Shown: one piece after another, positions 18,776 to 50,518 of the stretch
How positions within the stretch are numbered: the first letter of the stretch is position 1
How the letters are laid out: the number at the start of each line of letters is the position of its first letter
Origin: Escherichia coli
GTDB taxonomy: Bacteria > Pseudomonadota > Gammaproteobacteria > Enterobacterales > Enterobacteriaceae
Reading direction: 5' to 3' (one strand)
DNA: 64,000 bases
Assembly: GCF_003991155.1 (NCBI RefSeq)
Contig: NZ_CP031293.1
Translations under genes and position numbers: made by a program
Notes under the pieces: model-generated
What the model was told of the DNA's origin: nothing
What the model saw: only the letters and a program-made list of their open reading frames with translations
The model's database searches: none

Positions 18776-18787
18776 GGGATTATTACC

Positions 18788-33597: not shown

Positions 33598-33775
33598 CAC
33601 CCGGAGAAGGTAAATCCCTCAAGGGGCAGCAACTCTGCCAGTCGCTCCTCCGGCCACTCCGGCAGACGTGTCAGGACGTCTGTCAGCCAGGCATGTGGCT
33701 CCAGACCGTTGCGTTTCGCGGTTTCCAGCAAGCTCATTATTTGCGCAGCGCGTTCTCCCGCCATACGACAGCCGT
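33598..33775 (-). mobile_element. IS66-family transposase (TnpC) C-terminal fragment
   Basis: The minus strand encodes ...GERAAQIMSLLETAKRNGLEPHAWLTDVLTRLPEWPEERLAELLPLEGFTFSG*, paralleling the C-terminus of the intact IS66 TnpC in this window (...[40 protein letters not shown]...). Confidence 0.5.
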
Positions 33776-33797
33776 CAGAGCAGTGCGTCAGCGGGCG

Positions 33798-35642
33798 GCA
33801 GTTTTACCTGGGGTGCTGGCAGAGGTGGTTATGGCAGCGCCAGCCGCGATAATATCCACAGCAACTATGATTCCGTTAATGAGCAGAGCGGTATTTTCGC
33901 AGGCCGGGGTTATTTTGATATCACTGTGGGGAATCACACTCAGCTCGATGGTGCGGTGATTGCTTCGACAGCACCTGCCGACAGGAACTCGCTGGACACC
34001 GGTACTCTGGGCTGGTCGGATATCCATAACCAGGCAGACTATAAAGCCAGCTATACCGGAATCAGTTTATCGGGTGGCTCAGGGATGTCAGCCAGCCAGA
34101 TGGTGGCCTCAAATGCAATAGCCGGTGCGGCGAACGCACTTACCGGTATGTCCGGCAGCAGTGGACATGCTGAAGGTACCACGTCATCCGCCATCAGCGG
34201 CGGAAATCTCATTATCCGTGATAAGGAGAGTCAGAAGCAGGATATTGCCGGGCTCAGCCGGGACCCGGAAAACGCCAACGGCAGCATTGCACCGATATTT
34301 GACAAGGAGAAAGAACAGAAGCGTCTGCAGGAAGCGCAGGTTATCAGCCAGATTAGCGGTCAGATGAGTAATATCGTAATGACGTATGGCGAAACTGAAG
34401 CGATGAAAGCAGCCTGGAAAGAGCATCCTGGCATGAGCGATGCACAGTTGCGGGAGACTCCGGAATACAGAGAGGTCATGAAAGGCTACGGTACGGGCAG
34501 TTCGCCGCAGATGGTGGTACAGGCCATCACGGGCGTGCTGGGCGGACTGAATGCAGGGAACCCGGGGCAGGTATTGGCGGGCGGTCTGAATCCGGCAGTG
34601 GCACAGCTTATAAAACAGTCCACCGGCGATAACCGGGAAGCAAACCTGATGGCTCACGCAGTCTGGGGTGCACTTGCCGCACAACTGGGCGGAAACAATG
34701 CGGCTTCCGGTGCTGCTGGGGCATTCAGTGGTGAACTTGCAGCCTGGTATATCATTGATAACTACTACGGTGGTCGTACCGATAACCTGAGTGAACAGGA
34801 ACGTCAGCAAATCAGCATGCTGGCCACCATTGCCTCTGGTATTGCGGGGGGACTTGCAGGCAACAGTACGGCGTCTGCCGGTACGGGTGCACAGGCAGGA
34901 ACTCGGCTGAAAACAATATGCTGAACGTGATAGCCACTGAAACAGCAGCTAATACGGCAGCAGCAATAGCTGGTGCTACAGGTAATGCCAGTAAGGATAC
35001 CGGGAATGATAATAGCTGGGATACCGGTGGTGTTACGCTGGCTACGGGAACAGTGTGCTGTACGTGATCCGAGTCGCGATGGCACCCGAGGACCGGGGCA
35101 TGTGCTGAATGGCGACAATACAGACGGAAACAAACAGCCGAATCTGGGCAAAGACGTAGCGAGCGCAACGGATAAGGATAAAGCTGAGCTTGGTGGTGCA
35201 GGTGCTGGAATACCGGGGGGGATGGGGACCGGATAATGAAGAAAAAGCCCGTCATCAGGAGGTTCAGCAACAACGATTTGATGAACTGAGTAAAATATAT
35301 GATAAAAGTCACCCGGCCGGAGAGTTAACGGTGGATGGGCAGACTATCAGGCAGAGTTCGGTAAGTAACCGTTATGGTACGACGAAAGTGTTTGAAAGCC
35401 AGACTTTGACGGATAAACAGATCCACAATTACGCACAGCAACTGGCAGGCGATACACCGCTGAAAGAGGTAAAATCGGGAATCTACACGTCTAAACTATC
35501 AGATGGTTCGGTAATAACACTTAGAAACATATCTACATCAGAAGGTCAGACAGGCGCTCGTTGGACTATAGATATTCGTAATAACCAAAAGCTTACTGAA
35601 CTGGGGAATAAATATTCACGTGTGGAGATTAAGTTCAAATGA
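33798..35642 (+). pseudogene. Orphan cdiA-CT module 1: displaced 3' fragment of a cdiA gene with frameshifts
   Basis: DNA and protein homology to the pre-toxin region of the main cdiA begins at about 33798 ([51 protein letters not shown]). The VENN-equivalent (AENN, 34906..34917) lies in a different frame from the upstream ORF, and the toxin part is split over at least three frames. Confidence 0.6.
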
Positions 35643-35995
35643 TTACTGAGTTAAGTGAAAGAGAATACAAGGAGTTGACAGACGCTGCAGAGGGACAGAC
35701 TCTTGATGCTATTTTGTGTTATTCAGTTCCTGATATTCACCCTGCAGAGTTTAGTTTTGCAGATAGAAGAGAAATCTTTTTTTGGGCATTAACCCGTCTT
35801 CTGAAAGAAGGGCGTATCAAACTCGCCAAGCACGGTAAGTTTTTGGAAGGAAGTGTTGACGAGCAGGTTGAGCGTTTTCGACAGGCATTTCCGAAAACAG
35901 AAGAAGAGATGGAAGACGGTATCTGGTTTTTTGATGAGAGTTGTCCGGGGGGGGCTGTTTGGGTGCTTGAAGATGGCTCTCTCGAATGGACCTGA
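35639..35995 (+). CDS. Putative orphan CdiI immunity protein (module 1)
   Basis: Intact 118-aa ORF whose ATG overlaps the stop of the orphan toxin frame (ATGA overlap), the arrangement typical of toxin/immunity pairs. Acidic small protein; no family recognised. Confidence 0.55.
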
Positions 35996-37112
35996 TAACC
36001 CCTTCACAGCGCAGGATGCGGCGCAGCGAGCGTATAACAACGATATGGCGGCCTCAGTTTTTGGTACCGGAGGGAACGATACAGGCTACAACGGCAGCGG
36101 TACAGGGACTGGCCGGCGGTAATCTGAGTGCAGCCCTGGCAGGTGGTGCAGCACCGTATCTGGCCGAAGTGGTGAAAACCATGACCACAGACCCGGTTAC
36201 CGGTGAGGTGAATAAGGCTGCAAATGTGGCTGCTCATGCCGTGGTGAATGCCGCACTGGCTGTGGCACAGGGAAATAACGCTCTTGCCGGTGCTGTAGGT
36301 GCAGCCACCGGCGAGGTGGTGGGAATGATAGCCACACAGATGTACGGTAAGCCGGTGAGTGAACTGAGCGAGACAGAGAAGCAGACGGTCTCGACACTGG
36401 CAACGGTTGCTGCTGGCCTGGCCGGTGGTCTGGTGGGCGACTCGGGGCTTCAGCGGTAGCCGGCGCACAGTCAGGTAAGACGACTGTTGAGAATAATTTA
36501 CTTGGCGGTAGTGAAGATGCTCAGGCTGCGTGGATACGCCAGCATGGTATCGACATGGCAACATGTGCAGAAAACCCTTCTGGTGCCGCCTGCCAGAAAG
36601 CAATGAATGAGAGGGATGCTGTAGGGCTGGCTCTGGCAACAGGTACAGTGGCACTACTCCCCGGTAGTGCTCAGGCTGTGTGGGGACTGGGAGCAAGTGC
36701 GAATGCTGGTATCAGTTATCTGGCTGATGGTACTGTAGATCCGACAAACGCAGCCATTGCAGGCTGGGTGAATGTGTTCAGCATGGGTAATGGCCTGGCG
36801 GGGACTGTGGGCTGGAATGCGGCAGGTGGTGCGCTGGGTAACTGGATTGACAACAAAGATCCTCTGTCTGGTGCAATTTCAAATGGTATCGGTTCTGCTG
36901 CCGGGTATGGTATCGGTAAAGGTATTACTTGGGGGACAGATAATATTACGAATGCTGTAGGAAAATGGGTGACAAATGGCTGGGATCCTAAGTACGATCC
37001 AACATGGATAAAATATGCTGAAGTAAATCGTAACGATATCATTCGAGAAGGCATGAAACCGAGCAATGTTCTTGGAACTGCTGGAGATATTGGCGGTTCT
37101 ATAGGATCCTAG
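35996..37112 (+). pseudogene. Orphan cdiA-CT module 2: cdiA 3' fragment with a frameshift; glycine-rich predicted membrane-active C-terminal domain; no immunity gene follows
   Basis: Homology to the main cdiA pre-toxin region ([28 protein letters not shown] ... [20 protein letters not shown]) runs up to a VENN motif (TTVENNLLGG) reached only after a frameshift near 36455. The C-terminal roughly 185 aa are Gly/Ala-rich with GxxxG-like spacing. Confidence 0.5.
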
Positions 37113-37162
37113 CTAGGTGGAAAAGTAACTTAGTCTGCAAGGATCAGGAGTTACAGACGGCA

Positions 37163-37348
37163 TTGGCTTTACGCTTACCGTTTTTTTACGCGCCAGAACA
37201 AGACTATGATAGCGTTGCCCTTATAGACGATCACATTATCGTCCACTCCGACTTTGCGCAACTACTGTAGAGTGGTGTACTCCGCGGCTTCTTTGAGGAT
37301 CTCAACTTCCATGTTTTTTTACCCAGCAAGGGCTGTAACTCTTTTATT
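37163..37348. repeat. About 180-bp segment, copy B of the direct repeat (copy A at 11205..11383)
   Basis: See copy A. Here it overlaps the 3' end of the minus-strand OrfA-like gene 37231..37644. Confidence 0.6.
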
Positions 37349-37644
37349 TTTATAGCGGCAGCCAGTTCTGAGGCAGGAACAACATCCTCTCCGGTAGTAA
37401 CAGCAGCGAGACTTCCTTCCAGGTATTGTTTTTTCCACTTAAACAACAGACTGGGCTGAATACCATGCAAATGCGCCACATGGGACACCCTCATGCCAGG
37501 CTCCGTTGTCTGCTGAATAATGGCAATTTTTTCCTGAGGAGTTTTACGTTTACGAAGCTCCTGCCCCAGCAAAGTTCCAGTTATCTCAAAATTAGAACTA
37601 GTGTTAGACATATATCCAAGCCTATCTCTTATTTTAAGATACAT
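37231..37644 (-). mobile_element. IS3/IS66-type helix-turn-helix transposase accessory gene (OrfA-like), probably remnant
   Basis: HTH_Tnp-type region ([44 protein letters not shown]). A run of seven A (GGTAAAAAAACATGG) near the 3' end resembles a -1 frameshift slippery site, but the -1 frame ([16 protein letters not shown]) stops after 16 codons, so no transposase catalytic ORF follows. Confidence 0.5.
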
Positions 37645-37671
37645 CCACTGTCTGGCGTTTCAAGGGGCGCT

Positions 37672-38037
37672 TCAAGTTTTTTCAGACAGTTGAACTAGTA
37701 TACCAATACATTCTTGTTCAGCATCAATGATACATGCTTGGTATGTCGGGAAAAAAACAGAGGTTTCTTTTACAATATATCCACAATCATAACATTGATA
37801 CCATTTCCAGCCTTTTTCCTGAATATAGGAAATATGTAGAAAAAGTGGCAAGACCGATTCGTCTGAGTATCCCTGTTTTTTAGCATTTTCAATGCATAAC
37901 AATTGCGAATTATATGCGTTATCTGATTGAGACAAAAGATATCCATTTTTCTCATGACAATACCATCTCCATTTATTGTCATCAGTCTTATAAAATTTCC
38001 ATATTAATCTCTGATTTCCAGATATCTTATAAATCAT
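37672..38037 (-). CDS. YegP/DUF1508-like small protein (tandem repeat fold), hypothetical function
   Basis: ATG at 38037; the ORF-track start at 38049 is a GTG. Two repeats of the pattern W(K/R)W...NG...(S/A)...Y (RLIWKFYKTDDNKWRWYCHEKNGYLLSQSDNAY and KGWKWYQCYDCGYIVKETSVFFPTY). AT-rich gene. Confidence 0.45.
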   Translation of the reverse strand: MIYKISGNQRLIWKFYKTDDNKWRWYCHEKNGYLLSQSDNAYNSQLLCIENAKKQGYSDESVLPLFLHISYIQEKGWKWYQCYDCGYIVKETSVFFPTYQACIIDAEQECIGILVQLSEKT

Positions 38038-38079
38038 AATATACTCCACTCCCCAAGGAGACGGCCCTGGGGAAGGTAA

Positions 38080-39444
38080 TCAGTGTTCTTTTATATATGC
38101 GGCTCTGTGACGTTCAAGTTCAATTGCACCACGATGTGATAACCAGCAGAAAATGATGCAACAAATAATACCGCAGCCAAGAAGATAAAATCCGCCATGC
38201 CAGCCAATATGATCGACCATAATACCAAACAGGCTGGTGCCCAGAGACGCACCGAAGATATAGCTCATAAAACCGCGTAAGCCTACTGCAGAACCAACAG
38301 CAAAGCTGGGAACGATCTCCATAGTCTGAACGGAAGCCAGAAATTGTGGAACGTAAATCAGGCAACCAACAATGGCAGCAAAAATTGTCACCATAAACAG
38401 CGATTCACTTTTCCAGTAGCCAATCAGGCAAATGAAAATCAGCGCCATACAAATCATCGCCAATGGCATACGACGCCCTTTAAACAGTTTGTCTGACAAC
38501 CAACCGGCAAGTAGCGTGGAAGGGATTGCGGCCCATTCAAAAAATAAAAACGCGACGCTCATTTGTTCTTTAGAAAAATGTTTCACCGTCAGCAGATAAA
38601 TAGGCAACCAGCTAATCATCCCGAAGCGTACCATGTATACAAATACGTCAACCAGTGAGACATACCAGGCATTTTTATTGCGTAATACATAAGTGCAGAA
38701 AATCTGAAAGGCACTCATGTTTTCTGGTGCTTTTACCGTCTGTCGGGTATTCAGGACGACTTTTTCTTCCGGCATCATCTCTTCCAGAGAGGGTAGACCT
38801 TCCTGACGTGGGGAACCTTTACCGAGAATCAGCACAATTACCGCAAAAACGATGGCCACGCAGGCCGGAACGATATAGCTCGCACTTTGCCAGTGCTCGC
38901 TGCCGAGTAGGGCAAAAGCGGCACCAACAATGGGTGCAACAATACCACCACCGACGTTATGAGAGATATTCCAGAAAGCACCAACCCGACCACGCTCCCG
39001 GCGAGGGAACCAGTTAGCAATAGTGATGAAAGAAGGACCAACGCCCATTCCCTGGAAAAGACCATTCAGAATAACCAATACCGCAAAAATCCAGAATGCG
39101 GTGCTGAATCCCAGGCCAACGTTAACGATGGCACATAACACCAGCCCACACGCCATAAAGACTTTCGGACTGGCTTTATCGGCAAGGCTACTCATCACTC
39201 CTTTGCTGATACCATAGGCGATAAGCATACAGCTACTCAGTACGCCAATTTGTGTGGCGCTGAGATCTAATTGCTCTTTAAGATAAGGCGTCGATAAGGT
39301 GAAATTATTACGCACGATATAGTATGCAAGATACCCCAGAAATACACTAAGTAACGCCTGCATACGATAGCGACGATATGTCACCTGAATTTTCTCCGCC
39401 GGAACACTATCCGCCGCTTGCCCCGTTTTAAATATTGATAACAT
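38080..39444 (-). CDS. pgtP: Phosphoglycerate transporter (organophosphate:phosphate antiporter, UhpT/GlpT family)
   Basis: 454-aa MFS of the UhpT/GlpT type, divergent from a pgtC-pgtB-pgtA-like three-gene regulatory operon; AGGTGA ribosome-binding site. Confidence 0.85.
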   Translation of the reverse strand: MLSIFKTGQAADSVPAEKIQVTYRRYRMQALLSVFLGYLAYYIVRNNFTLSTPYLKEQLDLSATQIGVLSSCMLIAYGISKGVMSSLADKASPKVFMACGLVLCAIVNVGLGFSTAFWIFAVLVILNGLFQGMGVGPSFITIANWFPRRERGRVGAFWNISHNVGGGIVAPIVGAAFALLGSEHWQSASYIVPACVAIVFAVIVLILGKGSPRQEGLPSLEEMMPEEKVVLNTRQTVKAPENMSAFQIFCTYVLRNKNAWYVSLVDVFVYMVRFGMISWLPIYLLTVKHFSKEQMSVAFLFFEWAAIPSTLLAGWLSDKLFKGRRMPLAMICMALIFICLIGYWKSESLFMVTIFAAIVGCLIYVPQFLASVQTMEIVPSFAVGSAVGLRGFMSYIFGASLGTSLFGIMVDHIGWHGGFYLLGCGIICCIIFCWLSHRGAIELERHRAAYIKEH

Positions 39445-39788
39445 GTCTTCACCTGTATTTTATATTGATATGAACACTTGGAGTATTCTGACAATGAGAG
39501 TTATATAATTGAGATGAAACATCAAACTGAAAAAATGTGTCACAATTGACACAAATTAATAAAATCAAAGCCTGTTTTTGACCCATTTTATTGATGCATA
39601 GACAGGGTAGATTTATGCTTTATCTGTTTTATTGTTAGCATGTGCGGATATTAACAAATCTCATGCTGATTATCGGGTAATCACTGATTAATATATTAAC
39701 GCTCTCTTTGAGCAGATGTGTTATCAGACGAAGTGTCTGAAACGGGTAATTTTTGTCTCAATGCGATTTTTGCGGTGTATTAATATTT

Positions 39789-41060
39789 ATGACCTGGATC
39801 ACAAACCGATTTTTTAGCTGGTGCGAAATCGGCATCAAAACCATGATTCTTTTACTGTTGTTGATGGATACCGGGGCCGTCAGGGCTCAACGAAATGAAC
39901 TGGTGATGGCCACCACATTCTCACCCGGAGCTACCGCGTGGATAATACAGCGCTGGCAAACAGAGCCTGAGTCGGTAATGATCCGTACGCTTAACCGCAC
40001 CAGTGCCTCACTGGAACAGTTGCTTGATACGGCCAACGTAGAAAACGTCGATCTGATCCTGACTTCATCACCAATGCTGCTCCAGCACCTTCAGGAGCAC
40101 CAGAAACTTGCCCCGTTTGATGATGCACCCGCAGAAAGCCAAAATCTGGTGCCGGAGTCGATCCGTGCAACCTCCGTTGCAGTAGCAATATCAGGTTTTG
40201 GTCTGCTCATTAATCGTCCGGCGCTTTCTGTAAAACACCTTCCTGCCCCTGCTGACTGGGACGATCTTGCTTTGCCGATCTATCAGGACGCTTTATTGAT
40301 GAGTAGTCCGTCGCGTTCAGATACTAACCATTTAATGGTTGAGTCATTACTACAGCAAAAAGGCTGGGTGAAAGGATGGGAAACGTTGCTGACAAGTGCA
40401 GGAAACCTGGTGACAATCTCCTCCCGCAGTTTTGGCGTAGCCGATAAAATAAAAAGCGGACTCGGCGTTGCCGGCCCCGTTATCGATAACTATGCTAATT
40501 TACTGTTAAATGACCCCCATCTCTCTTTTACCTATTTCCCCCGGTCTGCGGTATCTCCCACCTACGTTGCAATTCTCAAGAAAAGCCCACACGCCGATGC
40601 AGCCCGTCGCTTTATTCACTACCTGTTAAGTCCGAAAGGACAGCGTATTCTGGCCGATGCCAATACAGGAAAATATCCGGTGACACCACTTGCCGCAGAC
40701 AACCCGCGGGCAACGCAACAACAGCTCCTGATGAATCAACCCCCGCTGAATTATCACCTTATCCTGAAACGTCAGCGTCTGGTGCAGCGCTTGTTTGATA
40801 CGGCAATTAGCTTTCGGTTAGCACAGCTAAAAGATGCCTGGCGAGCGCTGCACAGTACCGAGGCACGCCTGAAGAAACCATTACCAGAAATACGTGCACT
40901 GTTAACACAAGTGCCCGTTGCAGCGGCCAGCAGTGAAGATCCCTTCTGGCTGGCACAGTTCGATAACAAAAGCTTTGCCGAGCAGCAAATGATGGAATGG
41001 CAACTCTGGTTTCTGAATAACCAGCGCCTGGCGATAAAAAAACTGGAAGAGCTGAAATGA
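39789..41060 (+). CDS. pgtC: PgtC-like periplasmic modulator of the phosphoglycerate transport regulatory system
   Basis: Position and size (first of three co-oriented genes; stop overlaps the pgtB start) match pgtC. Start is uncertain: the ORF-track start at 39753 is a TTG; ATG 39789 gives a plausible signal peptide, and ATG 39843 is the alternative. Confidence 0.65.
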   Translation: MTWITNRFFSWCEIGIKTMILLLLLMDTGAVRAQRNELVMATTFSPGATAWIIQRWQTEPESVMIRTLNRTSASLEQLLDTANVENVDLILTSSPMLLQHLQEHQKLAPFDDAPAESQNLVPESIRATSVAVAISGFGLLINRPALSVKHLPAPADWDDLALPIYQDALLMSSPSRSDTNHLMVESLLQQKGWVKGWETLLTSAGNLVTISSRSFGVADKIKSGLGVAGPVIDNYANLLLNDPHLSFTYFPRSAVSPTYVAILKKSPHADAARRFIHYLLSPKGQRILADANTGKYPVTPLAADNPRATQQQLLMNQPPLNYHLILKRQRLVQRLFDTAISFRLAQLKDAWRALHSTEARLKKPLPEIRALLTQVPVAAASSEDPFWLAQFDNKSFAEQQMMEWQLWFLNNQRLAIKKLEELK

Positions 41061-43066
41061 AAAACATAACGCTGTGGCAGCGTTTAAGACAGGTCAGTAT
41101 CAGTACCAGCTTACGTTGCGCATTTCTGATGGGGGCACTACTGACCCTGATTGTCAGTAGTGTCAGTCTGTATTCATGGCATGAACAAAGCTCACAAATT
41201 CGTTACTCGCTGGATGAGTATTTTCCCCGTATTCACTCTGCTTTCCTTATTGAAGGGAACCTGAATCTGGTGGTAGACCAGCTAAATGAATTTTTGCAGG
41301 CTCCCAACACCACGGTGCGATTGCAACTTCGTACCCAGATTATTCAGCATCTCGACACCATAGAACGGCTTAGTCGGGGGCTGTCATCCCGGGAACGCCA
41401 ACAACTGACGGTCATTTTGCAGGACAGTCGATCACTGTTATCCGAGTTGGATCGTGCGCTTTACAACATGTTTTTACTACGGGAAAAGGTGAGTGAGCTA
41501 TCAGCGAGGATTGACTGGTTACACGATGATTTTACTACCGAGCTTAATTCTTTAGTGCAGGATTTCACCTGGCAGCAGGGAACGCTGCTGGATCAAATCG
41601 CCTCCCGACAGGGCGATACGGCGCAATACCTGAAGCGATCTCGTGAAGTGCAAAATGAACAGCAGCAGGTTTATACCCTGGCACGCATTGAAAATCAGAT
41701 TGTTGACGATCTGCGTGACAGACTCAATGAACTCAAATCAGGACGTGATGACGACACACAGGTGGAAACTCATCTCCGTTATTTTGAAAATCTGAAAAAA
41801 ACGGCAGATGAAAATATACGTATGCTGGATGACTGGCCTGGCACCATTACCCTGAGGCAGACTATCGATGAATTGCTGGATATGGGAATCGTAAAAAACA
41901 AAATGCCGGATACGATGCGTGAATATGTCGCCGCCCAAAAAGCCTTAGAGGATGCCAGTCGCACCAGGGAAGCGACACTGGGTCTCTTCAGAACGTTACT
42001 GGAAGCGCAGCTTGGCAGTACTCATCAACAAATGCAGATGTTTAATCAACGAATGGAACAAATTGTTCGCGTTAGCGGTGGGCTGATCCTAGTGGCGACA
42101 GCACTGGCGTTACTGCTGGCATGGGTATTCAACCATTATTTTATCCGCTCACGGTTGGTGAAACGCTTTACCCTACTGAATCAGGCCGTTGTGCAAATTG
42201 GTCTGGGAGGCACGGAAACGACTATTCCTGTTTATGGGAATGATGAACTGGGGAGAATTGCAGGATTATTACGCCATACTCTCGGGCAGCTCAATGTGCA
42301 AAAACAGCAACTTGAACAAGAAATTACCGATCGAAAGGTGATAGAAGCCGATCTGCGTGCCGCCCAGGACGAACTGATTCAGACAGCGAAGTTGGCGGTA
42401 GTCGGGCAAACGATGACCACGCTGGCCCACGAGATCAATCAGCCGCTAAATGCGCTGTCGATGTATCTGTTTACAGCCCGCAGGGCCATTGAACAGACCC
42501 AGATAGAACAGGCCTGCATGATGCTTGGTAAAGCCGAAGGGGTGATTAGTCGCATTGACGCCATTATCCGTTCACTACGGCAGTTTACCCGGCGCGCCGA
42601 ACTGGAAATATCACTCCATGCCATTGATTTAGCAAAGATGTTCAGTGCGGCCTGGGAACTTCTGGCCATGCGTCATCGCCCTTTGCAAGCTACGCTTGTT
42701 CTGCCACAAGGTACAGCCACAGTTTCAGGCGATGAGGTCAGAACCCAGCAGGTACTGGTTAACGTACTGGCGAATGCGCTTGATGTTTGTGGGCAAGGCG
42801 CTGTCATTACCGTTAACTGGCAAATGCAGGGTAAAACGCTGAACGTATTCATTGGCGATAATGGCCCGGGCTGGCCTGAGGCATTGTTGCCTTCGTTATT
42901 GAAGCCGTTTACCACCAGTAAAGAAATAGGACTGGGTATTGGTCTTTCAATTTGTGTGTCGTTAATGGAGCAAATGAAAGGGGAATTACGGCTGGCATCA
43001 ACGATGACCAGGAATGCCTGTGTGGTACTGCAATTCAGACTAACGGATGTGGAAGATGCTAAGTAG
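41057..43066 (+). CDS. pgtB: Sensor histidine kinase of the phosphoglycerate transport system
   Basis: 669 aa with N-terminal membrane/periplasmic sensor region, H-box (TMTTLAHEINQPLNAL) and C-terminal ATPase domain; 4-bp start overlap with pgtC. Confidence 0.85.
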   Translation: MKNITLWQRLRQVSISTSLRCAFLMGALLTLIVSSVSLYSWHEQSSQIRYSLDEYFPRIHSAFLIEGNLNLVVDQLNEFLQAPNTTVRLQLRTQIIQHLDTIERLSRGLSSRERQQLTVILQDSRSLLSELDRALYNMFLLREKVSELSARIDWLHDDFTTELNSLVQDFTWQQGTLLDQIASRQGDTAQYLKRSREVQNEQQQVYTLARIENQIVDDLRDRLNELKSGRDDDTQVETHLRYFENLKKTADENIRMLDDWPGTITLRQTIDELLDMGIVKNKMPDTMREYVAAQKALEDASRTREATLGLFRTLLEAQLGSTHQQMQMFNQRMEQIVRVSGGLILVATALALLLAWVFNHYFIRSRLVKRFTLLNQAVVQIGLGGTETTIPVYGNDELGRIAGLLRHTLGQLNVQKQQLEQEITDRKVIEADLRAAQDELIQTAKLAVVGQTMTTLAHEINQPLNALSMYLFTARRAIEQTQIEQACMMLGKAEGVISRIDAIIRSLRQFTRRAELEISLHAIDLAKMFSAAWELLAMRHRPLQATLVLPQGTATVSGDEVRTQQVLVNVLANALDVCGQGAVITVNWQMQGKTLNVFIGDNGPGWPEALLPSLLKPFTTSKEIGLGIGLSICVSLMEQMKGELRLASTMTRNACVVLQFRLTDVEDAK

Positions 43067-44303
43067 TGAATATTCGATTCTGCTGATTGATGATGATGCA
43101 GATGTGCTGGACGCCTACACACAGTTACTTGAACAGTCAGGCTATCGGGTTTTTGCCTGTAACAATCCTTTTGAGGCGCAGGCGTGGATACAACCAGACT
43201 GGCCAGGCATTGTGCTAAGTGATGTGTGTATGCCTGGCTGCTCTGGTATCGATTTGATGATGTTATTCCACCAGGATGATCAACAGATCCCCATTCTGCT
43301 TATCACCGGGCACGGCGACGTGCCAATGGCAGTTGATGCGGTAAAAAAAGGCGCGTGGGATTTTTTGCAAAAACCGGTTGATCCCGGCAAATTGCTTTCT
43401 CTGGTTGAAGAGGCGCTACGCCAGCGTCAATCAATCATTGCGCGTCGTCAGTATTGCCAACAGACATTGCAGGTGGAGTTGATAGGGAGAAGTGAATGGA
43501 TAAATCAGTATCGGCGACGTTTACAGCAGTTGTCTGAGACAGATATTGCCGTCTGGCTCTACGGTGCCCCTGGCACAGGACGGATGACCGGTGCACGTTA
43601 TCTGCACCAATTTGGACGTAATGCACAAGGCGAATTTGTCTACCGCGAGCTGACACCAGACAATGCACCACAGCTTAATGATTTCATTGCGCTGGCTCAG
43701 GGGGGAACATTAGTGCTCAGCCATCCTGAACACCTGACGCGTGAACAGCAGTACCATCTGGTTCAGTTACAAAGCCAGGAACACAGACCTTTTCGCCTGA
43801 TTGGTATTGGAGACACCTCGCTGGTCGAGCTGGCCGCCAGCAACCATATCATCGCGGAGCTCTATTACTGCTTTGCAATGACACAAATCGCTTGCCTGCC
43901 ATTAACTCAACGCCCCGACGATATTGAACCACTGTTTCGCCACTACCTTTGTAAGGCATGTCAACGGCTTAACCATCCTGTTCCGGAAGTGGGAAAAGAG
44001 ATGCTCAAAGAGATGATGCGCCGCATGTGGCCAAATAATGTGCGAGAGCTGGCCAATGCAGCAGAACTGTTTACTGTAGGAATATTACCGCTGGCAGAAA
44101 CAGCAAACCCGTTGATGCACGTCGGAACCCCGGCACCGCTTGACAGGCGAGTGGAGGACGCTGAGCGACAGATAATCACAGAGGCGCTTAATATCCATCA
44201 GGGGCGTATCAATGAGGTTGCTGAATATTTACAAATCCCACGGAAAAAACTCTATCTCAGAATGAAAAAATACGGTCTTAGTAAGGAGCATTATAAAATT
44301 TAA
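43056..44303 (+). CDS. pgtA: NtrC-family (sigma-54-dependent) response regulator of the phosphoglycerate transport system
   Basis: Receiver domain (ILLIDDDADVLDAY ... VLSDVCMPGCSGIDL), AAA+ sigma-54 activator core (GAPGTGR) and C-terminal helix-turn-helix. ATG 43056 gives 415 aa, matching my recollection of Salmonella PgtA; the ORF-track start 43047 is also an ATG. Confidence 0.85.
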   Translation: MLSSEYSILLIDDDADVLDAYTQLLEQSGYRVFACNNPFEAQAWIQPDWPGIVLSDVCMPGCSGIDLMMLFHQDDQQIPILLITGHGDVPMAVDAVKKGAWDFLQKPVDPGKLLSLVEEALRQRQSIIARRQYCQQTLQVELIGRSEWINQYRRRLQQLSETDIAVWLYGAPGTGRMTGARYLHQFGRNAQGEFVYRELTPDNAPQLNDFIALAQGGTLVLSHPEHLTREQQYHLVQLQSQEHRPFRLIGIGDTSLVELAASNHIIAELYYCFAMTQIACLPLTQRPDDIEPLFRHYLCKACQRLNHPVPEVGKEMLKEMMRRMWPNNVRELANAAELFTVGILPLAETANPLMHVGTPAPLDRRVEDAERQIITEALNIHQGRINEVAEYLQIPRKKLYLRMKKYGLSKEHYKI

Positions 44304-44324
44304 CCATCAGACTTGTGAGCTTGT

Positions 44325-44552
44325 TCATAATGTTATGTCATTTGTGTGATTCATAGACATCGTTTCAATTTTCTCAGCAAGTTCAAAGTAGTGTTCCATC
44401 GGAGTTTTACCGTTGTGAGCGCTATGAGGACGTTCCCAGTTATAGTAATGCTGCCATTCTGCCAGCAGTTCCTTCAGGTCATCAGCAGAAAGATCTACGG
44501 TAGCGTAAAACTCAGCTTTGTTCACGATCACCAACATCGTAAATGGCTCCAC
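44325..44552 (-). mobile_element. IS3-family transposase C-terminal fragment
   Basis: ...LAEWQHYYNWERPHSAHNGKTPMEHY... is the conserved integrase-core C-terminal signature (YN-x-ERPHS) of IS3-family transposases; only about 75 codons remain. Confidence 0.6.
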
Positions 44553-44854
44553 CTCGATACCTGCCAGTTCATGAGATTAGTCGAATCCGATGTTCCCCGC
44601 GTTATGTGCCCGAAGCGTTGTTGCCAGCCCCTGCCTGTAGCATGGACTGGTCCGGCAGCCGGTACTCGCTGCTGTTCGAATTGTTCGTGCTCTCATGGCT
44701 AAAAATCAGCACCGTTGATGCCGTCAGGAAACAACTTAAAATTAGCTGGAATGCCGTTGACGGCATTATGACTCGTGTGGTTAAGCGCGGTCTGTCCCGG
44801 ATGAAAAAGCCTTTATTAGCACGTCATATGAATGTAGACGAAGTCGCCTTTAAA
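44543..44854 (+). pseudogene. ISL3-like transposase N-terminal remnant, interrupted by the IS66 insertion
   Basis: ...LKISWNAVDGIMTRVVKRGLSR...ARHMNVDEVAFK, continuing after the IS66 element (47554 onward) as ...YRYITVISDRNGRTLELTDD in another frame. This resembles the ISL3-family pattern (GIDEFAFRKGH-Y-TVV-D) as I recall it. Confidence 0.4.
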
Positions 44855-44907
44855 GTAAGCGCCTCATCTGAACCGTCTGGTCTGTTTCCTCCGGCTCCAC
44901 AAAAATA

Positions 44908-45585
44908 ATGTCCATCATTTTTAATGGACACTATCGTATGGAATACCGGACCTGGATCACCGAAGCTTTACGTCTTCACTTTGAAGAACATTTACCACGG
45001 ATTGTGGCCGGACGTCGCCTGGGCGTACCAAAATCAACAGTTTGTGGTATGTTCGTGCGCTTCCGCAAAGCTGGCCTTTCATGGCCTCTGCCCGCAGGTA
45101 TGTCGGAGCGGGAACTTGATGCCCGTCTTTACGGGAGTGCCTCCACAGTACCTGTCGTACTTACTGAAAACACCGTTATGTCCGAAGTCCCGGTGGTAAA
45201 AAAACGTCCCCGGCGGCCTAATTTTCCTTATGAGTTTAAAATCGCCTTAGTGGAGCAGTCACTGCAGCCCGGAGCCTGTGTGGCGCAGATCGCCCGTGAA
45301 AACGGAATCAACGATAACCTGCTCTTCAACTGGCGCCATCAATACCGGAAAGGTGGCCTGCTGCCTTCCGGAAAAAATATGCCTGCACTGCTTCCCGTGA
45401 CGTTAACGCCGGAGCCGGATAATAAAATCCCGGCTCCGGCACAGGAACCAGAGCAGATAAATACACCGTCCGACAGTCTGTGCTGTGAGCTGGTTCTGCC
45501 GGCCGGAACTCTCAGGCTGAAAGGTGAACTGACACCGGCGTTATTACAGACACTTATCCGCGAAATGAAAGGGAGCAGCCACTGA
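44908..45585 (+). CDS. IS66-family orf1 (TnpA-like accessory protein)
   Basis: First ORF of the IS66 element; helix-turn-helix region ...FKIALVEQSLQPGACVAQIARENGINDNLLFNWRHQYRKGG. Confidence 0.8.
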   Translation: MSIIFNGHYRMEYRTWITEALRLHFEEHLPRIVAGRRLGVPKSTVCGMFVRFRKAGLSWPLPAGMSERELDARLYGSASTVPVVLTENTVMSEVPVVKKRPRRPNFPYEFKIALVEQSLQPGACVAQIARENGINDNLLFNWRHQYRKGGLLPSGKNMPALLPVTLTPEPDNKIPAPAQEPEQINTPSDSLCCELVLPAGTLRLKGELTPALLQTLIREMKGSSH

Positions 45586-45932
45586 TGATATCTCTCCCTG
45601 CAGGTTCGCGTATCTGGCTGGTTGCCGGTATCACCGACATGCGAAATGGCTTTAACGGCCTGGCCTCAAAAGTTCAGAACGTCCTGAAGGATGACCCGTT
45701 CTCCGGACACCTGTTCATCTTCCGCGGACGCCGGGGTGACCAGATAAAAGTGTTGTGGGCTGACAGCGACGGACTGTGCCTCTTCACCAAACGCCTGGAG
45801 CGGGGCCGCTTCGTCTGGCCGGTCACCCGTGACGGCAAGGTGCACCTTACTCCGGCCCAGTTATCCATGCTTCTTGAGGGCATCGACTGGAAACATCCAA
45901 AACGAACGGAACGCACTGGCATCCGCATATAA
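45585..45932 (+). CDS. IS66-family TnpB (orf2)
   Basis: 115 aa; MISLPAGSRIWLVAGITDMRNGFNGLA...HLFIFRGRRGDQIKVLWADSDGLCLFTKRLERGRFVWP matches the conserved IS66 orf2 as I recall it; ATGA start overlap with orf1. Confidence 0.85.
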   Translation: MISLPAGSRIWLVAGITDMRNGFNGLASKVQNVLKDDPFSGHLFIFRGRRGDQIKVLWADSDGLCLFTKRLERGRFVWPVTRDGKVHLTPAQLSMLLEGIDWKHPKRTERTGIRI

Positions 45933-45951
45933 CCCGTTGTAAAGTGAGGAT

Positions 45952-47523
45952 ATGGACACCTCACTTGCTCATGAGAACGCCCGCCTGCGGGCACTGTTGC
46001 AGGCGCAACAGGACACCATCCGCCAGATGGCCGAATACAATTGCCTGCTCTCACAGCGGGTGGCGGCTTATGCTTCTGAAATCAACCGGCTGAAGGCGCT
46101 GGTTGCAAAACTGCAGCGCATGCAGTTCGGTAAAAGCTCAGAAAAACTTCGCGCAAAAACCGAACGACAGATACAGGAAGCACAGGAGCGAATCAGCGCA
46201 CTTCAGGAAGAAATGGCGGAAACACTGGGTGAGCAATATGACCCGGCACTGCCATCTTCCCTGCGCCAGTCTTCAGCCCGTAAACCGTTACCGGCTGCAC
46301 TTCCCCGTGAATCCCGGGTTATCCGGCCGGAAGAGGAATGCTGCCCGGCTTGTGGTGGCGAACTCAGTTCTCTGGGATGTGATGTGTCAGAGCAACTGGA
46401 GCTTATCAGCAGCGCCTTTAAGGTTATCGAAACACAACGTCCGAAACTGGCCTGTTGCCGGTGCGACCATATCGTGCAGGCACCAGTACCTTCAAAACCC
46501 ATTGCACGCAGTTATGCCGGAGCGGGGCTTCTGGCTCATATCGTCACCGGGAAGTATGCAGACCATCTGCCGTTATACCGCCAGTCAGAAATATACCGTC
46601 GTCAGGGCGTGGAACTGAGCCGCGCCACGCTGGGGCGCTGGACCAGTGCCGTTGCTGAACTGCTGGAGCCGCTGTATGACGTGCTGCGCCAGTATGTGCT
46701 GATGCCCGGTAAAGTCCATGCGGATGATATCCCCGTTCCGGTCCAGGAGCCGGGCAGTGGTAAAACAAGAACTGCCCGGCTGTGGGTTTACGTCCGTGAT
46801 GACCGTAACGCCGGTTCACAGATGCCCCCGGCGGTCTGGTTCGCGTACAGCCCGGACCGGAAAGGTATCCATCCACAGAATCACCTGGCCGGTTACAGCG
46901 GTGTGCTTCAGGCCGATGCTTACGGTGGTTACCGGGCGTTATACGAATCCGGCAGAATAACGGAAGCCGCGTGTATGGCCCATGCCCGGAGAAAAATCCA
47001 CGATGTGCATGCAAGAGCGCCTACCGATATCACCACGGAAGCCCTGCAGCGTATCGGTGAACTGTATGCAATCGAGGCAGAGGTCCGGGGATGTTCAGCA
47101 GAACAGCGTCTGGCGGCAAGAAAAGCCAGAGCTGCGCCACTGATGCAGTCGTTGTACGACTGGATACAGACTCAGATGAAAACACTGTCGCGTCACTCGG
47201 ATACGGCAAAAGCGTTCGCATACCTGCTGAAACAGTGGGGTGGCCTGAACGTGTACTGCAGTAATGGCTGGGTGGAAATCGACAACAACATCGCAGAGAA
47301 CGCCTTACGGGGAGTAGCCGTAGGCCGGAAAAACTGGCTGTTCGCAGGTTCCGACAGCGGTGGTGAACATGCGGCGGTGTTGTACTCGCTGATCGGCACA
47401 TGTCGTCTGAACAATGTGGAGCTAGAAAAGTGGCTGCGCTACGTCATTGAGCATATCCAGGACTGGCCGGCAAACCGGGTACGCGATCTGTTGCCCTGGA
47501 AAGTTGATCTGAGCTCTCAGTAA
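45952..47523 (+). CDS. IS66-family transposase TnpC
   Basis: 523 aa with N-terminal coiled-coil/leucine-zipper region, CxxC...CxxC zinc motif (CPACGG...CCRCDH) and DDE core; conserved C-terminal ...[23 protein letters not shown]... Confidence 0.85.
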
Positions 47524-48101
47524 ATATCAATACGGTTCTGACGAGCCGCTTACCCTTTAAAAAGGTATAGGTATATAACAGTAATATCTGATCGTAACGG
47601 ACGGACGCTGGAATTAACCGATGACCGCAGCACAGAGAGTAGGGGATGCGGACGGTCAAAGATCGCGGCGTTGGATTTTATAAATCTGTCTCCAGTAGTA
47701 GATGAACTGAATACAAAGTTGCCAGAGAGTGGTCTGTCAGGCAGGGAATCAGAAACTGGATATTATTGACTGGTACATTGTGTCGGGCTGTGTACGTTCT
47801 CCCCGGACAGACAGTCTCAGTTCGTAGAATCTATAAATTACTGCTACTGATGCTGCCGGGGAAAGGCGTAACGAAAAAACAGCCTCCGTTACCGGACAGC
47901 AAGGAGGCTGAATGGAGTTTACAGGATTTGCTTTTTTATAATGTCTGGCCATGCAGTAAAACCGGACAGGTTTTATTATCATGTGAGGTATTCTGACATA
48001 AAATGCTGGATTTTTATTTTGTGACGAATGCTGCAAAATTGAATCTGCACTCTGATGTAACTTTTATCTGTTTCAGTGAAGCATGCCCACAAATTGAGTT
48101 A

Positions 48102-48335
48102 TTAAGTTGTGGAAGAACAGTTTTGTCCCGCCTGCATCTCTCCTTTCAAAAACCAGTATGTTGCCATGCCTCGCCTTAATGGAGAGCGCTGAACCACACC
48201 TTCTTTTTCCAGTAATAACAGGTAATAGCGTGCCTGATAATCCGTTACCGCCAGCGCCTCCGCAATTTCTGCGGTTTTCCCTCCATTATGCCTGTTCAGA
48301 AATTCCAGTATTTCATTCTTCATATATTCACTCAT
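48102..48335 (-). CDS. papI: P-fimbrial phase-variation regulator PapI
   Basis: 77-aa protein [66 protein letters not shown]... matches PapI as I recall it; divergent from papB across the regulatory region. Confidence 0.9.
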
Positions 48336-48528
48336 CTCACTGTAACAAAGTTTCTTCGAATAATAAAAATCATGCTCTCTGTTATCAACGGAAAGGTATT
48401 TTTATTCTCTATGTTTGCTTTATTTGTGAAATTTAGTGAATTTGCTTTTTGTTGGCTTTATTTGATGTGTATCACATTTTGTGTGTTATTTTTCTGTGAA
48501 AAGAAAGTCCGTAAAAATGCATTTAGAC

Positions 48529-48634
48529 GATCTTTTATGCTGTAAATTCAATTCACCATGATGTTTTTATCTGAGTGTATTCTTGTTGTTGGTGTTTTAT
48601 TCTGGTTTGATTTTGTTTTGTGGGTTAAAAGATC
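48529..48634. promoter_or_regulatory. pap phase-variation control region: two Dam GATC sites 102 bp apart (Lrp/PapI switch)
   Basis: GATC at 48529..48532 (ACGATCTTTTA) and 48631..48634 (AAGATCGTTTAAA), centre-to-centre 102 bp, in the 404-bp papI-papB intergenic region. A CRP-like TGTG...CACA element at about 48461..48485 is only tentative. Confidence 0.7.
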
Positions 48635-48739
48635 GTTTAAATCAATATTTACAACATAAAAAACTAAATTTAACTTATTGCGTGAAGAGTATTTCAGGGC
48701 CGGAAGCATATATCCAGGGGCCCGACAGAAGGGGGAAAC

Positions 48740-49054
48740 ATGGCGCATCATGAAGTCATCAGTCGGTCAGGAAATGCGTTTTTGCTGAATATACGCGAGA
48801 GCGTACTGTTGCCCGGCTCTATGTCTGAAATGCATTTTTTTTTACTGATAGGTATTTCTTCTATTCACAGTGACAGGGTCATTCTGGCTATGAAGGACTA
48901 TCTGGTAGGTGGGCACTCCCGTAAGGAGGTCTGCGAGAAATACCAGATGAATAATGGGTATTTCAGTACAACACTGGGGAGACTTATACGGCTGAATGCT
49001 CTTGCAGCAAGGCTTGCACCTTATTATACAGATGAGTCGTCGGCATTTGACTAA
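48740..49054 (+). CDS. papB: P-fimbrial transcriptional regulator PapB
   Basis: 104-aa protein MAHHEVISRSGNAFLLNIRESVLLPGSMSEMHFFLLIGISSIHSDRVILAMKDYLVGGHSRKEVCEKYQMNNGYF... matches PapB-family regulators as I recall them. Confidence 0.9.
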   Translation: MAHHEVISRSGNAFLLNIRESVLLPGSMSEMHFFLLIGISSIHSDRVILAMKDYLVGGHSRKEVCEKYQMNNGYFSTTLGRLIRLNALAARLAPYYTDESSAFD

Positions 49055-49261
49055 ATTATGGCATTCCGGAGTTTCTGGAAGATAAAAAAAGAAGTCCTTA
49101 TCAGAAAGCAGACAGGTTATATCAGTATTCTGTCGATAAATAACCTGCCCTGAAAATACGAGAATATTATTTGTATTGATCTGGTTATTAAAGGTAATCG
49201 GGTCATTTTAAATTGCCAGATATCTCTGGTGTGTTCAGTAATGAAAAAGAGGTTGTTATTT

Positions 49262-49810
49262 ATGATTAAGTCGGTTATTGCCGGTGCGGTAGCTATGGCA
49301 GTGGTGTCTTTTGGTGTAAATGCTGCTCCAACTACTCCACAGGGGCAGGGTAGAGTAACCTTTAACGGAACTGTTGTTGATGCTCCATGCAGCATTTCTC
49401 AGAAATCAGCTGATCAGTCTATTGATTTTGGACAGCTTTCAAAAAGCTTCCTTGAGGCAGGAGGTACATCCAAGCCAATGGATTTAGATATTGAGTTAGT
49501 AAATTGCGATATTACAGCTTTTAAACAAGGTCAACCAGCTAAAAACGGTAAGGTTCAATTATCTTTTACTGGGCCACAAGTAACGGGGCAGACTGAAGAA
49601 TTAGCAACTAACGGCGGTACGGGCACAGCTATTGTAGTTCAGGCTGCAGGCAAAAACGTTTCTTTCGATGGGACTGCAGGTGACGCTTATCCCCTGAAAG
49701 ATGGTGATAATGTTCTTCATTATACAGCTCTTGTGAAAAAAGCGAATGGCGGTACTGTTTCTGAAGGTGCTTTTTCTGCAGTTGCAACCTTTAATTTAAG
49801 TTACCAGTAA
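49262..49810 (+). CDS. papA: P-fimbrial major pilin PapA
   Basis: Start placed at ATG 49262 (MIKSVIAGAVAMAVVSFGVNA signal peptide) after an AAGAGG ribosome-binding site; pilin with conserved Cys pair and C-terminal ...ATFNLSYQ beta-strand motif. Confidence 0.85.
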   Translation: MIKSVIAGAVAMAVVSFGVNAAPTTPQGQGRVTFNGTVVDAPCSISQKSADQSIDFGQLSKSFLEAGGTSKPMDLDIELVNCDITAFKQGQPAKNGKVQLSFTGPQVTGQTEELATNGGTGTAIVVQAAGKNVSFDGTAGDAYPLKDGDNVLHYTALVKKANGGTVSEGAFSAVATFNLSYQ

Positions 49811-49872
49811 TTCATCTGATTTTTACAGGGTGAGGCAAGACCCACCCTGTGTCTGACAACGACATTTAAGGT

Positions 49873-50460: not shown

Positions 50461-50518
50461 GTCACTCCGGTGAGATGTCCGGTTATTTATCTTTTTTGTG
50501 AATCTGGTGATGCGTGGA

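Follow-up and report, generated by a model that had tools for sequence, protein, structure and literature searches.

The window analysed here is a stretch of 64,000 nucleotides of Escherichia coli DNA, and within it lie pgtP, on the minus strand, and the divergent genes pgtC, pgtB and pgtA, whose stop and start codons overlap (Table 1). RefSeq gives the four genes these names, and NCBIfam equivalog profiles score above their cut-offs for PgtP (NF047787, 885.8 bits against 750, profile positions 1-448 of 451), PgtB (NF047794, 1068.5 against 1000, positions 2-655 of 656) and PgtA (NF047793, 726.2 against 650, positions 1-414 of 414). The sequence-only reading had proposed an intact phosphoglycerate transport locus with the overlapping starts of a tight operon, and that description held: the open reading frames lie exactly where it had placed them, all four genes are full length, no internal stops were found in any of them, and they align over their full length with orthologues in tblastn. 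The overlaps are an ATGA shared between the pgtC stop and the pgtB start (4 nt) and 11 nt between pgtB and pgtA. Inactivating lesions were considered, and none was found in the profile matches, the full-length tblastn alignments or a comparison of E. coli alleles, which differ mainly at synonymous sites. With pN/pS values of 0.05-0.31 and no stops between E. coli alleles (0.045 for pgtP against a second allele), all four genes are, by this measure, under strong purifying selection within the species. Positions 38080-44303 are an intact copy of a known uptake system for phosphoglycerates and phosphoenolpyruvate (PEP), pgtP together with the pgtCBA sensor genes.

Table 1. Features of the pgt locus and its borders, in window coordinates
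Feature	Coordinates	Strand	Description
IS3-family orfA remnant	37231..37644	-	Bounds the pgt module on the left; match to NCBIfam IS2 repressor TnpA (E 1e-34); frameshifted partial transposase in RefSeq
orf121	37672..38037	-	Short ORF restricted to E. coli; 43 nt downstream of pgtP; 31.7% GC; predicted tandem DUF1508/YegP-like fold
pgtP	38080..39444	-	454 aa; organophosphate:phosphate antiporter (MFS, GlpT/UhpT family) for 2-/3-phosphoglycerate and PEP
pgtP/pgtC control region	39445..39842		Divergent; 33.7% GC; five conserved blocks
18-bp inverted repeat TGTGTCA-CAAT-TGACACA	39536..39553		Putative PgtA operator; lies 92-109 nt before the pgtP start codon (ATG)
GAGTCAAAAATAACC-like conserved block	39569..39584		Half-site; conserved in the alignment; about 32 nt further upstream than the palindrome
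TGTGATCCAGGTCATA (pgtP sense)	39788..39803		Highly conserved box, CRP-like candidate; overlaps the alternative pgtC start codon
pgtC	39789..41060	+	Periplasmic solute-binding-fold modulator; ORF limits 39753/39843-41060
pgtB	41057..43066	+	669 aa; membrane sensor histidine kinase
pgtA	43056..44303	+	Response regulator; ORF start 43047/43056
Transposase/integrase-core remnants	44325..44855		Right border of the module; RefSeq pseudogene fragments
IS66-family element, tnpA/tnpB/tnpC	44908..47523	+	Complete; lineage-specific insertion

PgtP matches the GlpT structure 1pw4 (E 1.4e-91) and retains the GlpT-type Arg/His residues in the segments YYIVR..., NISHNVGGG and VFVYMVRFG, which we take, from established knowledge of GlpT, to be substrate-site residues here as well; its gene is preceded by the Shine-Dalgarno sequence AGGTG. 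PgtB has two predicted transmembrane segments, a large periplasmic domain and the Pfam domains HAMP, HisKA and HATPase_c, with the H-box (LAHEINQPL), the N-box and the G-boxes all found. For PgtC, no dedicated HMM match was found in the NCBIfam library searched; the protein has the periplasmic solute-binding fold of Pfam SBP_bac_6 (E 4e-29), weak PDB matches to periplasmic ferric and pyridoxal-phosphate binding proteins, a signal-peptide-like N-terminus, and 79-87% amino acid identity with the orthologues of the closest genera. Its start codon is ambiguous. RefSeq begins the gene at 39843 (405 aa), but an ATG at 39789 (423 aa) is conserved, and in 25 of 54 loci a start there gives the protein a signal peptide, so that the upstream codon appears the more likely start.

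The pgtP-pgtCBA system of Salmonella enterica was worked out in the Hong laboratory from the 1980s to 1995. The same four genes occur there in the same divergent order, with overlapping pgtC, pgtB and pgtA and the same domain architectures. PgtP is an antiporter of the same family as GlpT and UhpT, and the Uhp system, like Pgt, is induced externally through a dedicated two-component system and a third sensing protein; the accessory sensor UhpC is a paralogue of its transporter, whereas PgtC has a periplasmic binding-protein fold, and the regulator is NarL-like in Uhp but NtrC-like in Pgt. In E. coli the copy differs from that of Salmonella, where pgt is part of the core chromosome, in lying in a tRNA-Phe island between IS remnants and in having an additional DUF1508-like ORF (orf121) downstream of pgtP. 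This small neighbour, absent beside pgtP in every other genus, had been called YegP-like, and the label stands weakly by predicted fold and fails by sequence. It has no Pfam match even at E<=10, DUF1508 included, and its homologues have no Pfam domain; BLASTP against a YegP sequence showed no similarity, which we treat as a lead only. Its AlphaFold (AF2) model (pLDDT 79) shows the beta-beta-beta-alpha topology twice in tandem, and among its best PDB matches in Foldseek are all four DUF1508/UPF0339 structures, 2k8e (YegP), 2k49, 3bid and 6q2z, at probabilities of 0.92-1.0 but E values of 0.05-0.17. Its pN/pS is 0.09.

The surroundings bear out the earlier proposal that the locus was acquired horizontally, beside adhesin and toxin cargo and between IS debris. 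The chromosome of E. coli FDAARGOS_1284 matches the window at 100% identity. In it pgt sits in a tRNA-Phe (pheV) island, with cdiBAI/orphan toxin modules on one side and a pap (papG-III) operon on the other; the integrase at the right end of the window is followed there by tRNA-Phe, yqgA and speC. With its integrase beside tRNA-Phe, the yqgA-speC junction and a mosaic virulence cargo (cdiBAI, pap, agn43), this is a pheV genomic island of the PAI-V type. Remnants of an IS3-family orfA on the left and of transposases on the right flank the module, and matches to other E. coli strains end at about position 44854. The same locus on the same kind of island is known as pgtABCP of PAI-V536/GI-pheV (intP4.3 type) and PAI I5155, and pgtABCP has been described on pheV islands together with pap or pix fimbriae (PMC11537424, PMC10438821, PMC4232414, PMC7387560, bioRxiv 2024.09.04.611154); pgtP has been reported in more than 30% of B2 strains (PMC5996543). 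Compared with PAI-V536/GI-pheV, the copy described here has the IS66-family element just to the right of pgtA and otherwise differs in nothing essential, and its neighbours are cdiBAI and papG-III rather than pix and kps. Since the genes are annotated in RefSeq and several papers describe pgtABCP of PAI-V536/GI-pheV, the presence of pgt on the pheV island of many extraintestinal E. coli is already known.

Across complete E. coli genomes the locus was found in 464 of 5426 (8%), always at least 95% identical; the copies lie on several islands of differing arrangement and on 10 plasmids. Beyond E. coli, about 50 species of Enterobacterales keep the divergent pgtP/pgtCBA order and the overlapping genes, and their tblastn alignments are full length. 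The nearest orthologues, those of Citrobacter, Klebsiella and Salmonella, are about equally distant (80-92% amino acid and 74-77% nucleotide identity), and the Salmonella (diarizonae) locus, at 80-91% and 74.5%, is no closer than the other two. A recent Salmonella origin was considered and rejected: nucleotide identity to species representatives reaches at most 77%, and the highest value does not belong to Salmonella, so no Salmonella donor is indicated. The term “Salmonella-type” used in the sequence-only reading applies only insofar as the locus is homologous to the system that was first investigated in Salmonella.

Revision is needed for PgtA, which had been labelled a sigma-54 activator. 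The protein does have the expected architecture, a receiver, an AAA+ domain and a Fis-type helix-turn-helix (Pfam Response_reg, Sigma54_activ_2, AAA_lid_14 and HTH_8), and both NCBIfam and the PDB yield alignments to NtrC-family regulators. This architecture shows homology only, and the motifs by which sigma-54 enhancer-binding proteins (EBPs) work are gone. The GAFTGA loop that contacts sigma-54 is absent, 13 residues replacing the 32 of NtrC4; Walker A reads GAPGTGR against the consensus GxxGxGK, with Arg for Lys; and Walker B reads LVLSHPE against hhhhDE, with Ser-His for Asp-Glu. Among 52 PgtA orthologues compared, the loop and the Walker B Asp-Glu are missing from all, and Walker A has Arg in 51, the Lys being kept only by an Orbaceae protein. 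Residues 140-284 are 100% identical to the PDB entry 3n70, deposited as “Transport activator”, and the best full-length PDB relative is NtrX, itself a recognised atypical EBP (PMC6158489). On these motifs, PgtA is a member of the NtrC family by descent only and no true sigma-54 activator, and from the lost motifs we propose that its AAA+ domain has degenerated and does not hydrolyse ATP.

The control region between pgtP and pgtC points in the same direction. Phylogenetic footprinting across 14 genera or species gave five conserved blocks, and the region contains an 18-bp inverted repeat of the form TGnGTCA-N4-TGACnCA. When at most 2 mismatches are allowed, 52 of the 53 orthologous loci have this pattern ahead of pgtP, where about 0.001 chance matches per region would be expected; it stands 106-131 nt from the pgtP ATG in 42 loci and 153-339 nt from it in the others. 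The Yersinia, Budvicia and Xenophilus loci also have a second site, 32-33 nt further upstream than the palindrome. We infer that the repeat at 39536-39553 is the binding site of PgtA. A targeted scan for -24/-12 elements, on the other hand, found no conserved one in the pgtP-pgtC intergenic region of any orthologue; the best candidate in the pgtP sense matches 5 of 11 positions, is not conserved and reads GAGTCAAAAATAACC in relatives, and most orthologous regions lack any GG-N10-GC in that sense, with none conserved. Two generic scans stayed near background. The pattern TGGCAC-N5-TTGCW with 3 mismatches gave 323 matches across the window against 336 expected and is uninformative, and the sigma-70 and terminator scan gave 13 against 11.4 and 10 against 7.0, with no promoter called. 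Moreover, two Salmonella sigma-54 regulon studies, which recovered nearly all known sigma-54 operons, make no mention of pgt. The rpoN dependence of pgtP that had been put forward earlier is therefore unlikely, because pgtP has no -24/-12 promoter upstream and has the conserved 18-bp inverted repeat instead.

The substrates of Pgt and the logic leading from PgtC through PgtB to PgtA come from the Salmonella literature. Applied to the E. coli copy, they suggest that periplasmic PgtC, with its solute-binding-protein fold, would detect external 2-phosphoglycerate (2-PG), 3-phosphoglycerate (3-PG) or PEP and modulate the membrane histidine kinase PgtB, which would phosphorylate the receiver Asp56 of PgtA. 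PgtA would then bind TGnGTCA-N4-TGACnCA and the half-site about 32 bp further upstream, about 100 bp before pgtP, and would activate ordinary sigma-70 polymerase rather than sigma-54, because its AAA+ domain appears degenerate, non-hydrolysing and without the sigma-54 contact loop; the use of sigma-70 at pgtP is thus deduced from the missing motifs together with the missing promoter element. PgtP would bring in phosphoglycerate or PEP from outside in exchange for internal phosphate, and the imported compound would enter lower glycolysis directly. In Salmonella, PgtP is an importer of 2-PG, 3-PG and PEP, and pgtP mutants do not grow on these compounds (PMC7873081).

The regulation may not be identical in the two hosts. 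In Salmonella, the Salmonella-specific co-activator VrpA (STM2748) binds the pgtP promoter, activates it directly and is required if pgtP is to be fully expressed; VrpA is described as being among the regulators absent from E. coli (PMC7873081), so that the strength of pgtP induction in E. coli may differ. Taken further, this would allow the locus, though intact, to be in effect cryptic in E. coli or wired differently there, contributing little natural carbon uptake or acting mainly as a sensor. We regard this as improbable, given the strong purifying selection estimated for all four genes, the retention of the locus in 8% of complete genomes with its varied islands and plasmids, and the fact that the E. 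coli copy has kept both the operator-like repeat and the blocks near the promoter. The notion that PgtA is a conventional sigma-54 enhancer-binding protein serving an rpoN-dependent pgtP promoter fares worst and deserves hardly any credence, since, of the Pfam and NtrC-family matches on which it draws, that to Sigma54_activat covers the first 55 positions of the profile and breaks off at position 55 of 168, and all of them are set against the loss of the loop and of both Walker signatures, the poor and unconserved -24/-12 candidate and the silence of the Salmonella sigma-54 regulon studies. We are quite confident that the pheV island of this extraintestinal-type E. coli carries a functional, externally induced phosphoglycerate/PEP uptake module whose regulator PgtA is independent of sigma-54.

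A broader and somewhat less secure reading, which we nevertheless think probable, is that PgtA, together with all its orthologues, represents a widely conserved and so far unrecognised class of atypical response regulators of the NtrC family, with a fixed pseudo-ATPase AAA+ domain and sigma-70 activation from the TGnGTCA-N4-TGACnCA operator. The atypical regulators NtrX, VpsR, HupR, TyrR, PhhR and HsfA likewise combine an NtrC-like architecture with the absence of GAFTGA and non-consensus Walker motifs. PgtA does not appear in the published list of characterised atypical EBPs, which comprises these same six proteins (PMC6158489), and no literature connecting PgtA with GAFTGA or enhancer binding was found. 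It differs from NtrX in a shorter L1-loop region, and from the atypical EBPs in general in that its use of sigma-70 is read from sequence.

For the biology of E. coli, the locus would give island-carrying strains direct access to host-derived 2-PG, 3-PG and PEP. A role in ExPEC/AIEC fitness is plausible because PgtP-mediated 3-PG uptake is needed for macrophage replication and systemic virulence in Salmonella (PMC7873081). Finding pgt here adds little in itself, because the presence of the genes is already catalogued. The case of the regulator is another matter: PgtA is routinely labelled sigma-54-type, and both sequence and comparative evidence speak against its acting through sigma-54. As a mechanistic by-product, the conserved candidate operator upstream of pgtP is available for testing. 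If the proposed class is real, PgtA would join the published atypical EBPs, with a crystal structure of its AAA+ domain already deposited, and a 40-year-old textbook “NtrC homologue” would become a tractable model for the conversion of an enhancer-binding protein into an ordinary activator.

Every coordinate and structural detail proposed for pgtP/pgtCBA by the sequence-only reading proved correct, with exact matches in the six-frame ORF list. PgtP, PgtB and PgtA are full-length matches to NCBIfam equivalog profiles and score above the curated cut-offs; PgtC matches SBP_bac_6 (E 4e-29), a periplasmic solute-binding fold. The three pgtCBA ORFs are consecutive on the plus strand, with ATGA common to the end of pgtC and the start of pgtB and an 11-nt pgtB/pgtA overlap, given the RefSeq pgtA start; the locus has a GC content of 47.7%. 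The claim that it is intact also stands. In a tblastn comparison with 80 fetched loci, one genome per species, the four proteins align end to end with their orthologous loci, and the divergent order is kept in about 50 Enterobacterales (genera including Citrobacter, Salmonella, Serratia, Providencia, Morganella, Yersinia, Edwardsiella, Pectobacterium and the Klebsiella oxytoca-group). Compared with GlpT, PgtP retains the residues that established GlpT work places along the substrate site: Arg in YYxVR, His in HNVGGG and Arg in VYxxR. PgtB has two hydrophobic segments flanking a long periplasmic region; HAMP follows, and after it come the H-box LAHEINQPL, an N box and G boxes. In the PgtA receiver the acidic pocket is present, and Asp56 aligns with the residue phosphorylated in NtrX and DctD. 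The allele of a second E. coli strain, SF-166, has 98.4% nucleotide identity to this one; the changes are mostly synonymous, with low pN/pS and zero stops. No inactivating lesion was seen in any of the four genes in the orthologue alignments, the motifs or the SF-166 comparison.

Features of the pgt locus and its surroundings in the window (pN/pS is against the SF-166 allele)
Feature	Position	Strand	Description	NCBIfam equivalog bits (cut-off)	pN/pS
cdi locus	17003-28654		cdiB, 3288-aa cdiA (annotated contact-dependent inhibition tRNA nuclease), immunity gene		
Orphan cdi modules	33668-37112		Row of VENN-motif cdiA-CT/immunity-like modules; nanXY and IS fragments between cdi parts		
orf121	37672-38037	-	43 nt downstream of pgtP, same strand, own GGAG ribosome-binding site		
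pgtP	38080-39444	-	454-aa ORF	885.8 (750)	0.045
Inverted repeat	39536-39553		TGTGTCA-CAAT-TGACACA		
pgtC	39843 (RefSeq start ATG)-41060	+	ORF list; RefSeq name PgtC		0.31
pgtB	end 43066	+	ORF list	1068.5 (1000)	0.20
pgtA	43056 (RefSeq start)-44303	+	ORF list	726.2 (650)	0.067
IS66-family element	44856-47600		Complete; tnpA/B/C 44908-47523		
pap operon	48100-57990		Complete, papG-III allele and papX		
Tyrosine recombinase	62925-64000		The island's recombinase, at the right-hand window edge		

What did not hold is the description of PgtA as a sigma-54 activator. Judged by its motifs, PgtA is not a working one. Pfam Sigma54_activat covers it at model positions 1-55 of 168 only. In alignment with NtrX and NtrC4, its Walker A reads GAPGTGR, with Lys replaced by Arg; its Walker B is LVLSHPE versus LFLDEIG in NtrC4; and the 32-residue segment that bears GAFTGA in NtrC4 has a counterpart of just 13 residues. 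The GAFTGA loop and the Walker B acid pair are absent from all 52 pgtP-linked PgtA orthologues in the alignment, and the Walker A Arg is found in 51 (the exception is an Orbaceae protein). PDB 3n70 is identical to PgtA over residues 140-284, and therefore a structure of the degenerate domain already exists. The closest full-length PDB relative of PgtA is NtrX, itself a recognised atypical EBP; characterised members of that class, in a 2018 paper, are TyrR, HupR, HsfA, PhhR, NtrX and VpsR, with PgtA not listed (PMC6158489). The 398-bp pgtP-pgtC intergenic region holds a single GG-N10-GC in the pgtP sense, scoring 5 of 11; the same site reads GAGTCAAAAATAACC in relatives, and most orthologous intergenic regions have none in that sense. 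Moreover, pgt goes unmentioned in two Salmonella sigma-54 regulon studies, although almost every known sigma-54 operon was recovered in one of them. Since the PgtA motifs are lost, no GG-N10-GC is conserved and pgt is missing from those studies, the suggested test of rpoN dependence of pgtP would most likely be negative.

Phylogenetic footprinting of the control region gives five conserved blocks, the clearest being the inverted repeat. Of 53 orthologous loci, 52 carry the pattern TGnGTCA-N4-TGACnCA, with up to 2 mismatches, upstream of pgtP, against a chance expectation that we estimate at about 0.001 matches per region. Its distance to the pgtP ATG is 106-131 nt in 42 loci and 153-339 nt in the remainder (Yersinia, Pragia, Budvicia, the divergent Escherichia/Citrobacter R56 loci and Xenophilus). 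Three helical turns upstream of the repeat, at a distance of about 32 nt, there is a related half-site. The 7-N4-7 layout is similar to that of NtrC-type sites, and we infer that the repeat is a candidate PgtA binding site. In the same region, an in-frame ATG at 39789, upstream of the RefSeq pgtC start, is kept as M-(N/R/T)-(G/W)-I-T-N in 25 of the 54 loci compared and would give PgtC a proper signal-peptide n-region. Positions 39788-39803 over this codon (TGTGATCCAGGTCATA on the pgtP-sense strand) are conserved far above their flanks and match a CRP-like TGTGA-N6-TCAtA pattern; the cause of this conservation could be constraint on the coding sequence, CRP binding, or the two together.

The reading to which we commit is the classical Pgt model, altered at a single step. 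PgtC together with PgtB would sense external phosphoglycerate or PEP, PgtB would phosphorylate PgtA, PgtA would bind the conserved repeat and activate a sigma-70 promoter, and PgtP would import the substrate in exchange for phosphate. The substrates and the order PgtC, PgtB, PgtA are taken from Salmonella work (including PMC7873081); the sigma-70 step is proposed because of the PgtA and promoter sequences. In Salmonella, pgtP is also activated by VrpA, which E. coli reportedly lacks (PMC7873081), so pgtP expression in E. coli may be weaker or differently conditioned.

The label “Salmonella-type” is apt as to homology with the Salmonella paradigm, but a donor is not identifiable, the nucleotide identity being about 77% at most (C. 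koseri 77.2%, Salmonella 74.5%, species representatives). Amino acid identities to the closest species representatives, in the order PgtP/PgtC/PgtB/PgtA, are 91/86/83/85% for Citrobacter amalonaticus, 92/87/83/82% for Klebsiella michiganensis, 91/86/84/83% for Klebsiella grimontii and 91/85/82/80% for Salmonella diarizonae. A second, divergent pgt locus occurs in E. coli SCPM-O-B-8794, Escherichia whittamii, Escherichia sp. E1V33 and Citrobacter sp. R56 (identity to the island copy 75-76% for PgtP and about 50% for PgtA); its pgtP-pgtC intergenic region is much longer, about 870 bp, and contains the palindrome TGAGTCAGTTTTGACTCA. Firmicutes homologues of PgtP (Bacillus, Paenibacillus, Veillonella, Megasphaera and others; 60-71% identity) have no pgtCBA neighbours; the transporter has spread independently of the regulatory unit.

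For the small neighbour orf121 (GC 31.7%), the name “YegP-like” is plausible at the level of predicted fold and has no backing from sequence, with no Pfam match at E≤10. Its homologues are found in E. coli only, none with a domain, and in the compared loci of other genera it is absent beside pgtP. The AlphaFold model (10 homologues, pLDDT 79) has a beta-beta-beta-alpha topology twice, and Foldseek returned, besides HIV reverse transcriptase noise, exactly the four DUF1508/UPF0339 structures: YegP 2k8e, 2k49, 3bid and 6q2z (TM 0.72 on target). Probabilities were 0.92-1.0, at E values of 0.05-0.17; a tandem DUF1508/YegP-like fold is plausible from the model. The gene accompanies pgtP in differently arranged islands, with a pN/pS of 0.09 (purifying selection).

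Horizontal carriage on an island is supported, as are the IS debris and the adhesin and toxin neighbours. Window positions 37000-45000 match the E. coli FDAARGOS_1284 chromosome at 100% identity. There the module has to its left cdiB/cdiA (tRNA-nuclease toxin) with an immunity gene, nanXY, orphan cdiA-CT modules and IS fragments; to its right lie an IS66-family element, the pap operon, complete and of papG-III type, and then a tyrosine recombinase. Directly past the window end come tRNA-Phe, yqgA and speC, the pheV site. The conserved E. coli module (IS3 remnant, small ORF, pgtP, pgtCBA, IS remnants) begins at about 37180 and ends at about 44854, the point where matches to other strains stop. 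Because only the FDAARGOS_1284 record matches across the IS66 junction, that insertion is recent and lineage-specific. The locus, annotated pgtP/pgtC/pgtB/pgtA by RefSeq, occurs in 464 of 5426 complete E. coli genomes, always at an identity of at least 95% and in 430 of them at a query coverage of at least 80%. It is plasmid-borne in 10 places (including the 136-kb plasmid NZ_CP182143.1), and hence mobile beyond the pheV island; one plasmid copy lacks a complete pgtP.

The locus is thus real, intact and ordinary, an accessory metabolic locus already catalogued: pgtABCP belongs to PAI-V536/GI-pheV and to the pap-carrying pheV islands of the intP4.3 type (PMC11537424), is among the PAI-V536 markers (PMC10438821), lies in APEC PAI I5155 (PMC4232414), and has been reported in AIEC islands and in the 536 pheV-PAI, and a metabolic-model study, describing pgtP as “originally found in Salmonella”, puts the gene in over 30% of B2 strains (PMC5996543). 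Beyond the literature searched, the sole point added here is that PgtA would be an atypical, sigma-54-independent regulator of the NtrC family with a conserved candidate operator.
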